A stretch of 64,000 nucleotides of DNA from a virus (Duplodnaviria; Caudoviricetes). Every line of letters starts with the position of its first letter. Position 1 is the stretch's first letter. The position numbers were made by a program, and so were the translations under genes. Under the pieces are notes generated by a model. It did not search any database and had not been told where the DNA came from. It saw only the letters and a program-made list of their open reading frames with translations. Below, in pieces: positions 21,473 to 27,900 of this stretch. The stretch spans positions 1-64,000 of the IMG/VR virus record IMGVR_UViG_3300020414_000008; one strand, 5' to 3'.

Positions 21473-24400
21473 ATGAGTTTGATACACGGATTACATAAAG
21501 ATACCTTACTTGAAATCAACGGTAAACTTACTTCAATAAGTAATATATTAGTTGGTGATAAAGTCCAAGGTTACGATACACAGAATGGTGTCTACAGAGA
21601 CAATAAAGTTGTTAGAGTTGTAACACAAGAAATAGATTCTCATTTAAAATTAAAACTTTCAGACGGAACTGAGTTAAAAACTTCCGTTGATATAAAAATA
21701 TATAAAGATGGTGAATGGGTTTCACCAATCGGTAATACGTCATGCGCATCTGATGATTGTAAATGTTCTCATAAATCATTTTTCAATGACATAAAAGTTA
21801 TTTCCGTAGAATTAGTAGAAAAACCTATAGTAATTAGAAGTATAGAGGTAGAACCTGACCATAATTACTTTGTAGGTAATCTATTAGTACACAACACGGG
21901 TCCACAAGGTCCTAAAGGTCAAAAAGGACAAAAAGGTGCCTTAGGTCCAGCAGCATCGCCAGGTCCTCAAGGAGCACAGGGTGCTAAAGGTAGTACAGGT
22001 GGACAAGGTGGTACAGGTTCAACAGGTCCAAAAGGTCCAAAAGGTTCTACAGGTCCACAGGGAGCACAAGGTCCACAAGGTGCAACAGGACCAAAAGGTC
22101 CACAAGGTGCAACAGGACCACAAGGTGCAACAGGACCACAGGGAGCAACAGGAGCAAAAGGTCCTAAAGGTTCCACAGGTGGGGCGGGTCCAAAAGGTCC
22201 AAAAGGTCCCACAGGTGCAAAAGGTCCAAAAGGTAGTTTAGGTCCACAAGGTGCAAAAGGTCCAAAAGGTTCTACAGGTCCACAAGGTCCACAAGGTGAT
22301 ACAGGTCCTACAGGTGCATCGTTAACAGGTCCACAAGGTGGAAAAGGTCAAAAAGGTGCAACAGGAGCATCACCAACAGGTCCACAAGGTCAAAAAGGTC
22401 AAAAAGGTGCAACAGGTCCTCAAGGTTCAAGTCCTCAGGGTTCTAAAGGTCAAAAAGGTCAAAAAGGTGTAACAGGTCCTCAAGGTTCAAGTCCACAAGG
22501 TGCAACAGGTCCTCAAGGTGGAAAGGGTCAAAAAGGTGAAGTAGGAGCATCACCTCAGGGTGCAACAGGTGCACAAGGTGCAAAAGGTCCACAGGGTCCT
22601 CAAGGTCAAAAGGGTGCACAAGGTTCATCACCACAAGGTGCACAAGGTCCTACAGGAGCAACAGGTGCACAAGGTGCATCACCTCAGGGTGCTAAAGGTC
22701 AAAAAGGTCAAAAAGGTGCAACAGGTCCACAAGGTGCACAAGGTTCAAGTCCACAAGGTTCTAAAGGACAAAAAGGTGCAACAGGTCCACAAGGTGCACA
22801 GGGTGCAAGTCCTCAGGGAGCAAAAGGTAATACAGGTCCAGCAGGAGCAGTAGGTGCACAAGGTCCACAAGGTGCAAGTCCAAAAGGTCAAAAGGGTGCA
22901 CAGGGTAGTACAGGAGCACAAGGTCCTCAAGGTGCACAAGGTTCAAGTCCTCAGGGAGCAAAAGGTCCTAAGGGTCAAAAAGGTGCAGTAGGTCCTCAAG
23001 GTGCACAGGGTGCAAGTCCAACAGGTCCTAAAGGTCCACAGGGAGCGACAGGACCACAAGGAGCACAAGGTGCAAGTCCTAAAGGTCAAAAAGGTGAAGT
23101 AGGTCCTCAAGGTCCTCAAGGAGCACAGGGTTCATCACCACAAGGTGCAAAAGGTCCTCAAGGTTCTAAAGGACAAAAGGGTGAAGTAGGAGCATCACCA
23201 ACAGGTCCACAGGGTGCACAAGGTGCAAAAGGTCCACAGGGTCCTGAAGGTCAAAAAGGTTCACAAGGTGCAAGTCCAAAAGGTTCTCAAGGTCCTACAG
23301 GAGCAACAGGAGCACAAGGTGCAAGTCCTCAAGGTGCAAAAGGTCCTAAAGGTCCACAAGGAGCACAAGGTCCACAAGGTGCACAAGGTGCAAGTCCTCA
23401 AGGTTCTAAAGGTCAAAAAGGTGCAACAGGTCCTCAGGGTGCACAGGGAGCATCACCTCAAGGAGCACAGGGTGCAAAAGGTGCACAAGGTCCTCAGGGT
23501 GAACAAGGTGCACAAGGTGCAAGTCCTAAAGGTCAAAAAGGTCAAAAAGGTGAAGTAGGAGCACAAGGTCCACAAGGAGCACAAGGTTCAAGTCCTCAAG
23601 GTTCTAAAGGACAAAAAGGTCAAAAAGGAGCAGTAGGTCCTCAAGGTGCACAAGGAGCATCTCCTCAGGGAGCACAAGGTCCTCAAGGTTCTAAAGGTCA
23701 AAAAGGTGAAATAGGAGCACAGGGTGCGAGTCCAAAAGGTCAAAAAGGTGCACAAGGTGGTCAAGGGGCAACAGGAGCACAGGGTTCATCACCACAAGGT
23801 GCTAAAGGTCCACAGGGGTCTAAAGGTCAAAAAGGTGAAATAGGAGCACAAGGTGCAAGTCCTAAAGGTCAAAAAGGTGAAGTAGGAGCACAAGGTCCTC
23901 AAGGTGCACAGGGTTCAAGTCCTAAAGGACAAAAAGGTGAAGTAGGAGCACAAGGTCCTCAAGGTGCACAGGGTTCAAGTCCTCAAGGTGACCGAGGTGC
24001 ACAAGGAGCAACAGGAGCACAAGGTCCTCAAGGTGCACAAGGTGCAAGTCCTCAAGGTGCAAAAGGTCCTAAGGGTCAAAAAGGTGAAATAGGAGCACAG
24101 GGTGCAAGTCCACAAGGAGCACAAGGTCCTAAAGGTCCTCAGGGTGACCAAGGTGCACAAGGTAGTTCACCTCAAGGTTCAAAAGGTGAAAAAGGACAAA
24201 AAGGAGCACAAGGTCCAACAGGTGCACAGGGTGCAAGTCCACAAGGTGCAAAAGGTCAGAAAGGACAAAAAGGTGCATTAGGTGACCAAGGTGCACAGGG
24301 TGCAAGTCCAAAAGGTCAAAAAGGTGAATTAGGTCCTAAAGGTCAAAAAGGTGAAATAGGAGCACAAGGTGCAAGTCCTAAAGGTCAAAAAGGTGAAATA

Positions 24401-24917: not shown

Positions 24918-27900
24918 ATGTACGGTGGTTTCGTAACTTCTTCATTAGTCACAACCCAATTATCGGGTACAACAGACAATATAAATAACATTGGTTTAGG
25001 TTCTTCCTTAATTGGTGTTAATATTAGTGGTTATGCTCAATCTTCAAATGAAGATTTTCCTTTAACATGGACAGGTCAATATTCGGGAAGTAATACATCT
25101 TGGTTAGAATTATCTGAAGGAAATCAGGTAGTCAATCTTACAAATCCACAAATACAACAAACAATATATACTGTTGAAACCGATTCAGGTAGTTTATCAG
25201 TAGGTATAGACCAACCCCTTTTAACAGCAGGATTAGAATATTCAGGTGGTGGAACATATTGGAATATCGCATTTAAAACAGTAGAAGATATATCACCAAC
25301 AGGCGATTATTTAGTAAAATACAATTTCGATACAAATACATGGGAATATTGTTTAGTAACTAATGGTTGGATTGAAGCAGGACAATCTACGACAAAAGAA
25401 TTAGACTTAGAACCTTCTGATATGTACTTAGTCAATGGGTTCGTTGTTCACAACTTTAAAAACGGTGGTCTACCACCTGAAGGTAGTGGTTGTGGTGGTG
25501 GTGATGGTGATTCCTCATTTGGTCCACAGGGTGCCAAGGGACAAAAAGGTCAAACAGGTGGTACGGGTTCATCAGGTGGTCAGGGTGCACAAGGTGCAAC
25601 AGGTCAAGGTGGTACTACAGGACCAAAAGGATTTACTGGCTCATCAGGTGGTCAGGGTGACCAAGGGAACACAGGCCTTACAGGAAACAACGGTCCAACA
25701 GGACCAACAGGTCCTACGGGAGCACAAGGTCCTCAAGGTGCACAGGGTCCAACAGGAGCACAAGGTTCAACGGGTCCCGCAGGTGGTTTACCTTCAAGTG
25801 GTGCAACAGGTTCAACAGGTGATACAGGTAATACAGGTCCACAAGGTGACCAAGGTAGTCAAGGTTCAACAGGTGGAGCTGGTGACCAAGGTAGTCAGGG
25901 TCCAACAGGAGCACAAGGTTCAACAGGTTCACAACCTTCATCAGCACCAACAGGTGCAAAAGGTCAAAAAGGACAAAAAGGTGTATCAGGTGAGACAGGT
26001 CCACAGGGTGCTAAAGGACAAAAAGGTGAAACAGGTGCTACAGGTCCAGCAGGTCCTACGGGTCCACAAGGTGGAAAAGGTCAAAAAGGTGAAGTAGGAC
26101 CAACAGGTCCAGCAGGTCCTACGGGAGCACAAGGTCCTCAAGGTGCAAAAGGTTCTAAAGGACAAAAAGGTGTTGCAGGTGAAACGGGTCCTCAAGGTCC
26201 TCAAGGTGCAACAGGTGGAACAGGTGGTTCAGGTTCGCCAGGTGGAACAGGTAGTGCAGGTAATACAGGTTCTATAGGTAGTTCAGGTTTACAAGGTCCT
26301 ACAGGTTCAGCAGGTGACACAGGTCCACAGGGTGCTAAAGGACAAAAAGGTCAAACAGGTGCTACAGGTCCAACAGGTAATGCAGGTGACACAGGTCCTC
26401 AAGGTGGAGCTGGTGATAAAGGTCAAAAAGGTGAAAGAGGTGCCGCAGGTGATACAGGTCCACAAGGTGCACAAGGTAGTAAAGGTGTAACGGGTTCAGC
26501 AGGTGGTACAGGTGCCGCAGGTTCAAAAGGACAAAAAGGTCATACAGGTTCAGGTGGTGGAACAGGTAATACAGGTTCTACAGGAGCAGCAGGTGCAAAA
26601 GGTTCAACAGGTCCACAAGGTGACCAAGGTCAAAAAGGTGTTCAAGGTGAAACAGGTTCAGCAGGTGCAAAAGGTTCAACAGGTCCACAAGGAGCACAAG
26701 GTGGAACAGGTGAAACAGGAGCGGCCGGAAATAAAGGACAAAAAGGACAAAAAGGAGCACAAGGTGCAACGGGTCCACAAGGAGCAGCGGGTGACCAAGG
26801 TGCAACGGGTGACCAAGGTTCAAAAGGTCAAAAAGGTCAAAAAGGTGTAGCAGGTGAGACAGGTGCAACAGGTCCACAGGGTGCAACGGGTGATACAGGT
26901 GGTTCAGGTTCGCCAGGTGGTACAGGTAGCGCAGGTAATAAAGGTGTCATAGGTAGTTCAGGTCTACAAGGTCCTACAGGTTCAGCAGGTGATACAGGTC
27001 CACAAGGTGGAGCAGGTGACCAAGGTGCAAAAGGTAATCAAGGTTCAACGGGAGCAGCAGGTGACCAAGGTCCTCAAGGTGCAGCGGGTGATAAAGGTCA
27101 AAAAGGTGAAAGAGGTTCAGCAGGTGATACAGGTCCACAAGGTGCAACAGGTGATGTAGGTTCACAAGGTTCATCAGGTGGTACAGGTGCAGTTGGTAAT
27201 AAAGGTCAAAAAGGTCACGGTGGTTCAGGTGGTGGAACAGGTAATACAGGTGCAACAGGTAATGCAGGTGACACAGGACCAAAAGGTCAAAAAGGTGAAG
27301 CAGGTCAAAAAGGTGTTCAAGGTGAAACAGGTTCAGCAGGTGATACAGGTCCTCAAGGTGCAACAGGTAACAAAGGTTCAAAGGGTGAATTAGGTACTTC
27401 AGGTGGAGCAGGTGCAACAGGTTCAACAGGTGATATAGGTAGTTCAGGTCATCAAGGTGCAACAGGTAATGCAGGTGACACGGGTGAAACAGGTGATACG
27501 GGTCAAAAAGGTACTAAAGGTGGACTTGGTGAAACAGGTGACGCAGGTAATAAAGGTTCAACGGGTGACCAAGGTGCAAAAGGTAATCAAGGTAACACAG
27601 GTGCAGTAGCTCCTAAAGGACAAAAAGGTGAATTAGGTGCAACGGGTAACCAAGGTTCGACAGGTGCAGCGGGTGATAAAGGATTAAAAGGTATAGTAGG
27701 TTCAGGTGGTGGAACAGGTAGTACAGGTGGAACAGGTGCAGCTGGTGCAAAGGGTTCAACAGGTGACCAAGGAGCAACAGGTGACCAAGGAGCGACAGGT
27801 GACGCAGGTGATACAGGTGACGCAGGTGATACAGGTTTAAAAGGTGCAGTAGGTTCACAAGGTGGAGCAGGTGCAAAAGGTACTAAAGGTCAAAAAGGTC

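Follow-up and report, generated by a model that had tools for sequence, protein, structure and literature searches.

Hint domains without an N-terminal nucleophile head two collagen-like fiber proteins of a marine phage and may remove themselves by asparagine cyclization

The window analyzed here, the first 64 kb of a viral record of 180.8 kb (IMGVR_UViG_3300020414_000008; estimated completeness 94%), comes from an uncultured marine phage and carries two adjacent genes for giant collagen-like fiber proteins, collagen 1 and collagen 2. Ahead of its Gly-X-Y repeats each protein has an N-terminal domain that ends in His-Asn, which raises the question of what these domains are and whether they stay on the fiber. 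The original prediction held that both are Hint domains that have lost splicing and retain only C-terminal cleavage. Its open reading frames (ORFs), coordinates, N-terminal sequences and junctions are reproduced exactly: residues 1–141 of collagen 1 end in ...LLVHN and are followed by TGPQG, and residues 1–179 of collagen 2 end in ...FVVHN and are followed by FKNGG. From the sequence evidence below, the reading we think most likely, although at roughly even confidence, is that both domains lost N-terminal cutting and probably excise themselves from the collagen by Asn cyclization.

Residues 6–141 of collagen 1 (Hint1) are a genuine Hint domain by sequence comparison and structure prediction alike. 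Hint1 matches the Pfam PT-HINT model (PF07591) at E 1.3e-4 and 22.7 bits, under the gathering cut-off of 27.7 bits (members of its clade score 19–25 bits), and the Pfam intein splicing model matches its final 34 residues. A phmmer comparison with PDB sequences matched the bacterial intein-like (BIL) domain 2lwy of C. thermocellum and Tetrahymena BIL2 (E ~1e-3). Exhaustive phmmer with Hint1 against 1.84 billion protein representatives gave 202 matches at E<=1e-3, those to proteins spanning E 2e-18 to 1e-4. The close matches are short metagenome fragments, which where long enough run from ...HN/TGP into collagen triplets (the slash marks the domain end). The distant matches are Hint domains that belong to long proteins and frequently stand in tandem, joined as ...LVHN/K(G)GGC[FL]xxGT; they begin with Cys, 165 of 168 aligned domain ends are HN, and six that were scanned against Pfam hit PF07591 at E 1e-9 to 1e-41. 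The residue map of collagen 1 is based on an alignment (A1) with 32 Hint segments from these PT-HINT/BIL-type proteins; its profile retrieves 2lwy from the PDB at E 6e-34, and homology of Hint1 to the PT-HINT/BIL family is significant by both phmmer and profile. The original prediction had named a fold prediction as the check on this assignment, and the assignment passed it: AlphaFold2, with a 44-sequence alignment, gave a mean predicted local distance difference test score (pLDDT) of 87 and a predicted TM-score of 0.81. Foldseek with this model returned 59 PDB matches at E<=1e-3, the best being 6y75 (E 2e-10, TM 0.75), and all of the matches listed are BIL, intein or Vint domains. Model and structural matches together place the domain in the Hint fold superfamily.

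The N-terminal domain of collagen 2 (Hint2) has no Pfam match, and phmmer and hmmsearch against PDB sequences gave nothing useful. BLASTP of Hint1 against Hint2 aligns the last 20 residues only. Hhalign of the Hint alignment with the single Hint2 sequence covered the full length at 51% probability (E 1.5e-4). A second alignment (A2) comprises 13 Hint2 sequences from collagen-2 homologs gathered from related phage loci, where they were read downstream of Hint1. Profile–profile comparison of A2 with A1 gave 96.3% probability and E 1.6e-9 over 138 columns. By this homology the domain is a member of the Hint fold superfamily, as had been predicted, though its fold model reaches a pLDDT of only 48. 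Foldseek on that model found inteins or Hedgehog proteins in all of its top 39 matches (best E 2e-3). At the sequence level the Hint homology of this diverged domain is established; its detailed fold is not.

The residues at the catalytic positions separate into two groups. Gly6 of Hint1 and Gly4 of Hint2 align with the Cys1 nucleophile, and the block-B Thr and His columns hold Ser71 and Ile74 in Hint1 and, in the hhalign map, Gly96 and Gln99 in Hint2. Among relatives, position 1 of Hint1 is Gly or Ala, with Ser in just two short metagenome fragments, and none of 17 distinct members of the Hint1 clade has His in the block-B His column. All three residues of the N-terminal step are thus gone or altered in Hint1, and the three for Asn cyclization (His130 of block F, His140 and Asn141) are present, the roles of these positions being as described in PMC4031507. 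Measured against class 1 inteins, both domains have the C-terminal His-Asn (H140-N141, H178-N179) and neither has a Cys, Ser or Thr at position 1, the block-B Thr-x-x-His, or a +1 nucleophile together with an N-extein, position +1 being Thr142 in collagen 1 and Phe180 in collagen 2. The PT-HINT/BIL combination of N-terminal Cys and C-terminal His-Asn is represented by the His-Asn, with Gly in place of Cys. The class 3 triplet Trp-Cys-Thr is also absent: at block B, F:4 and G:5 stand what we take to be Ile76, Ser123 and Val139, an assignment based on the alignment and on the intein block numbering.

Five residues precede the domain in collagen 1 and three in collagen 2. An in-frame stop lies within a few codons upstream of each ATG, and a purine run resembling a Shine-Dalgarno sequence stands a few bases before the start; the collagen 1 ATG lies 10 bases past the stop of the upstream gene. 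Because the starts sit just after in-frame stops and behind such a run, there is no genuine N-extein. An N-extein supplied from upstream by read-through or frameshift was considered and ruled out: the upstream gene varies among relatives, and in most loci the ATG is 0–4 codons from an in-frame stop. Glycine at the nucleophile site, absence of a block-B TxxH and practical absence of an N-extein had all been predicted and hold for both proteins. The further claim that both keep the block F/G signature and terminal His-Asn stands for the His-Asn; block F is only partial in collagen 2, where Asp168 takes the place of His. Loss of splicing is upheld: with no position-1 nucleophile, block-B His or N-extein, class 1 splicing and N-terminal cleavage are excluded.

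A non-canonical, class-2/3-like reaction, in which Ser123 or Thr142 would attack the His5-Gly6 bond and join the pentapeptide leader to the collagen, we regard as extremely improbable. Ser123 is invariant and occupies the position of the class 3 Cys nucleophile, the +1 Thr and the Ile-His of the leader are invariant as well, and inteins without a position-1 nucleophile exist (PMC2807308). However, the class 3 signature is missing, and class 2 inteins require block-B Thr and His and an Asp at F:4 (PMC4031507), none of which Hint1 has. The +1 residue of collagen-2 proteins (Phe, Asp, Ala, Pro or Val) is no nucleophile, and splicing on a leader of 3–5 residues would serve no evident purpose.

Conservation among relatives bears on whether the domains remain active. 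Scanning viral contigs with Hint1 yielded 25 loci at 46–89% identity, and all 25 show a five-residue leader, Gly or Ala at position 1, and an end HN/TGP[QT]G followed by collagen. Where the ORF is complete, the collagen 1 homologs are 942–1502 aa long, and a second collagen gene directly follows in 11 of the 11 loci that reach far enough. The N-domains of these second collagens end in [FY][IV]VHN, with Phe, Asp, Ala, Pro or Val at +1. The 17 distinct Hint1 sequences (45–89% identity, mean 58%) share 34 invariant columns out of 161, which include I4, H5, S123–E127, D129, H130, N131, H140, N141 and T142, but not Pro128. The column of Ser123 holds Asn in PT-HINT/BIL relatives and Asp in inteins. 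At 23–38% identity to the Hint2 of the window, the 13 Hint2 sequences keep 16 invariant columns, three of them the terminal V-H-N. Pairwise ratios of nonsynonymous to synonymous substitution rates (dN/dS) for Hint1 range from 0.13 to 0.39, indicating purifying selection over the whole domain; Hint1 is therefore no decaying remnant. Searches elsewhere were mostly negative: tblastn of both domains against 50,697 deposited phage genomes found no match, the viral contig scan with Hint2 as query found nothing, and word-index homolog searches returned nothing in the full-length size range and, with Hint2 alone, six close fragments only.

Selection on the entire domain would also fit an uncleaved pseudo-enzyme, in which the Hint domain stays on the mature fiber as a structural part, adaptor or anchor, for example docking to the baseplate or neck, with His-Asn kept for packing. 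The invariant Ile4-His5 of the leader and the conservation of much of the domain allow such a binding or anchoring role, and both collagens lack the MxxWKKVxxSGS N-terminal motif of the neighboring fiber genes, so that they would need another attachment module. We nevertheless judge a retained pseudo-enzyme rather unlikely: the losses are selective, affecting the N-terminal catalytic residues only, and persistence of V-H-N among so few invariant Hint2 columns at such low identity is not readily accounted for by packing alone.

Self-excision is favored because the residues of step 1 have been selectively lost and those of step 3 strictly kept, as in engineered C-terminal cleavers. Both fibers would be made as precursors with an N-terminal pro-domain of BIL/PT-HINT type, which cannot form the N-terminal (thio)ester, as it has Gly in position 1, lacks the block-B His and is preceded by 3–5 residues only. 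The terminal Asn would attack its own peptide carbonyl, aided by the penultimate His and, in block F, by His in collagen 1 or Asp in collagen 2. The folded domain would then cut between Asn141 and Thr142 in collagen 1 and between Asn179 and Phe180 in collagen 2, leaving a Hint domain that ends in a succinimide and a collagen newly starting with TGPQG... or FKNGG.... In inteins, His F:13 and His G:6 assist cyclization of Asn G:7, and Asp F:4 can hold this reaction back as long as no branched intermediate has formed, as described for Pho RadA (PMC4031507). Isolated C-terminal cleavage is documented for the DnaB (Ssp) and delta-I-CM (Mtu RecA) mini-inteins, and in the latter D422G takes away the Asp that keeps the terminal Asn in check (PMC9033041). 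Release of the domain that follows has been inferred for PT-HINT domains (PMC3482391).

Several observations count against self-excision. Position +1 is Pro in 5 of 12 distinct collagen-2 sequences, a residue that is unfavorable there in engineered systems. Hint2 has no block-F His, its column being occupied by the invariant Asp168, and the AlphaFold2 model of this domain, made from 13 sequences, is poor. In some inteins Asn cyclization relies on the foregoing steps for its acceleration (PMC4031507), so the loss of Cys1 could slow it. The leader residues Ile4-His5 and many surface positions of Hint1 are conserved too, which hints that the domain is more than a throw-away part.

Cleavage might instead be conditional, with the Hint domain attached in the virion or precursor until a pH, redox or metal-release cue detaches or activates the fiber. 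Both pH and temperature strongly influence C-terminal cleavage in engineered inteins (PMC9033041), and a DnaB intein is reported to be reversibly inhibited by zinc (PMC7360933). Hint1 in the subclade of the window carries a Cys3-His loop, and that of a relative is weakly metallothionein-like. Neither the 134-residue subclade nor Hint2 has such a loop, however, and we consider a conditional cue improbable.

The loop itself (C91...C96-x-C98-x-H100) lies at the site where inteins carry their insertion, and is modeled at low pLDDT. It has equivalents in loci L003–L010, relatives show it as SCGCGDCKCG or SCSCSNCGCG, and the metallothionein-like resemblance is a weak Pfam match in one relative. It may be a metal site.

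No support was found for the chaperone, trimerization or timer role that the original prediction attached to these N-terminal caps. A related proposal, that the caps are self-removing counterparts of procollagen propeptides, also appears doubtful to us, and markedly so. They would hold the chain N-termini, or select chains of collagen 1 and collagen 2 and set them in register, during hydroxylase and glycosyltransferase action, and then excise themselves without a protease. The C-terminal chaperones of tailspikes and endosialidases (Peptidase_S74) and the propeptides of animal procollagens are likewise removable terminal domains on trimeric fibers, but the analogy is functional only. They differ from the Hint caps in sitting at the opposite protein end and in having an unrelated fold and other chemistry, and procollagen propeptides are removed by separate proteases. 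The end segments scanned with Pfam gave no match to Peptidase_S74.

Type-A BIL and PF07591 PT-HINT domains (2lwy; Tetrahymena BUBL BIL2, 6y75) are the known domains that best match Hint1 in sequence and structure. They share with the phage caps a length of ~130–140 residues, the lack of an endonuclease, a C-terminal His-Asn, independence of a +1 nucleophile, a position immediately ahead of the part due for release, and occurrence in variable surface or secreted proteins. BIL/PT-HINT domains, however, start with Cys, keep the block-B TxxH and are embedded in long proteins, frequently as tandem arrays, whereas the phage caps have Gly at position 1 and no block-B His, stand at the extreme N-terminus and carry a collagen triple helix as cargo; Hint1 falls below the Pfam cut-off and Hint2 goes undetected. 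Engineered C-terminal-cleaving mini-inteins (the Ssp DnaB tag of pTWIN; Mtu RecA delta-I-CM) offer another likeness: an N-terminal Hint domain with step 1 disabled, the pattern for releasing a downstream protein by Asn cyclization. The block-F Asp brake is gone through D422G in delta-I-CM (PMC9033041) and through Ser123 in Hint1. Those tags are products of mutagenesis, whereas the phage domains are natural, conserved across a phage lineage, and predicted cleavers. Class 1, 2 and 3 inteins share with the caps the fold and terminal His-Asn and, with collagen 1, the +1 Thr. Unlike inteins, the caps have no N-extein, position-1 nucleophile, block-B His, Trp-Cys-Thr triplet or homing endonuclease, and are not inserted in a conserved host protein. 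As judged from their residues, they are not inteins, class 3 included, and are clearly homologous to PT-HINT.

Literature searches turned up no publication in which phage collagen-like proteins are connected with Hint or intein-like domains. If the cleavage is real, it would represent a natural Hint domain specialized for C-terminal-only cleavage, without an N-extein, as a self-removing pro-domain of a virion fiber, and would add a route of phage-fiber maturation beside the C-terminal intramolecular chaperones. Evolution would then have converged on the solution of the engineered self-cleaving intein tag, with a non-nucleophile at position 1 and the block-F Asp replaced. The domains could provide natural scaffolds for C-terminal-cleaving tags able to accommodate different residues at +1 (Thr, Phe, Asp, Ala, Pro, Val), and the propeptide-like reading, if true, would mean a new conserved use of Asn-lyase chemistry in virion assembly. 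The family is missed by Pfam thresholds and collagen repeats break metagenome assemblies; it is largely unannotated, in part because assembly and gene calling fail on these repeats. Metagenome gene calls of relatives (P0005, P0155, P0156, P0028) slip into alternative frames rich in V, Q, K and H within the collagen repeats, where many contigs stop. Positions of the features are collected in Table 1.

Table 1. Features of the two collagen genes and the adjoining enzyme genes (window positions)
Feature	Position	Strand	Basis or remark
Collagen 1 gene (1142 aa) encoding leader, Hint1, Gly-X-Y repeats and small C-terminal domain	21473..24901	+	ORF list; same architecture in 25 viral contigs
Five-residue leader M-S-L-I-H	21473..21487	+	Precedes Hint1; Ile4 and His5 invariant in relatives
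Hint1 domain, Gly6-Asn141	21488..21895	+	PT-HINT, PDB 2lwy, AlphaFold2, Foldseek 6y75
Gly6 codon, Cys1 nucleophile column	21488..21490	+	A1: C[FL]xxGT vs GLHKDT
Block-B remnant S71-V-D-I74; Ser in Thr column, Ile in His column	21683..21694	+	A1
Cys-rich loop of Hint1	21743..21772	+	
Block F, S123-I-E-V-E-P-D-H130-N131; invariant except Pro128	21839..21865	+	A1 and 17-sequence conservation
His140-Asn141, predicted scissile bond, Thr142; all three invariant	21890..21898	+	Alignment of relatives
Collagen 1 Gly-X-Y region	21896..24757	+	Begins one residue past Asn141
Collagen 1 C-terminal non-collagen domain, 47 aa	24758..24898	+	Kept in relatives; weakly resembles collagen 2 counterpart
Collagen 2 gene (1236 aa) encoding Hint2, short linker, Gly-X-Y repeats and small C-terminal domain	24918..28628	+	ORF list
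Hint2 domain region, residues 1-179	24918..25454	+	hhalign, profile–profile, Foldseek
Val177-His178-Asn179, predicted scissile bond, Phe180	25446..25457	+	A2; V-H-N invariant in 13 sequences
Collagen 2 linker, 22 residues, Asn179 to first Gly-X-Y	25455..25520	+	One Cys
2OG-Fe(II) oxygenase, GT2 glycosyltransferase, GT-B/OGFOD2-like fusion	28680..32279	+	Pfam; directly downstream of collagens

The collagen neighborhood is a myovirus structural module. A baseplate-wedge/tail-fiber connector and fiber proteins come first, followed by the two collagens, then the 2OG-Fe(II) oxygenase, GT2 glycosyltransferase and GT-B/OGFOD2-like fusion, and finally the neck and sheath genes. G+C content is ~33% across the window and 44–51% over the two collagen genes. 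The three enzymes are likely collagen-modifying, and since oxygenase and glycosyltransferase genes directly follow the collagens, their position suggests that the fibers are hydroxylated and glycosylated. A homolog of the 200-aa oxygenase stands after collagen 2 in L003, L004, L011 and L014, the synteny being kept in relatives. The two collagen Hint domains are the sole matches in the 180.8-kb record, with no other Hint domain or source intein. For the tail sheath the nearest cultured phage is Microcystis phage Mel-JY01 (54% identity), which has neither Hint domain.

Fiber genes upstream of the collagens (window 18723-18800 and 20653-20730, and the same genes in L003–L024) share the N-terminal motif M-[PA]-x-W-K-K-[VIL]-[IV]-x-S-G-S, probably a common virion-attachment module. 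At the other end of the collagens, the C-terminal domains of collagen 1 and collagen 2 (28500-28625 in the latter) are weakly alike (...LTFK..G...SGS; BLASTP E 1e-4), a resemblance that would fit an ancient duplication in tandem of the entire Hint-collagen gene. The close relatives of the window have, as it does, only a short linker with one Cys between Hint2 and the triplets. Distant collagen-2 relatives (L003:8838-9750, L004:11575-12520, L012:11862-12620 and others) have a Cys-rich segment of ~50–100 residues between the His-Asn of Hint2 and the first Gly-X-Y. Of the 168 domain ends aligned among the distant PT-HINT relatives, 95 have Lys at +1. Many of these relatives (such as P0012, P0013, P0020, P0023, P0025, P0076 and P0085) consist of arrays of 2–4 PT-HINT domains joined head to tail through the ...LVHN/K(G)GGC[FL]xxGT... 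junction, and in sequence these arrays look like self-cleaving polyproteins.

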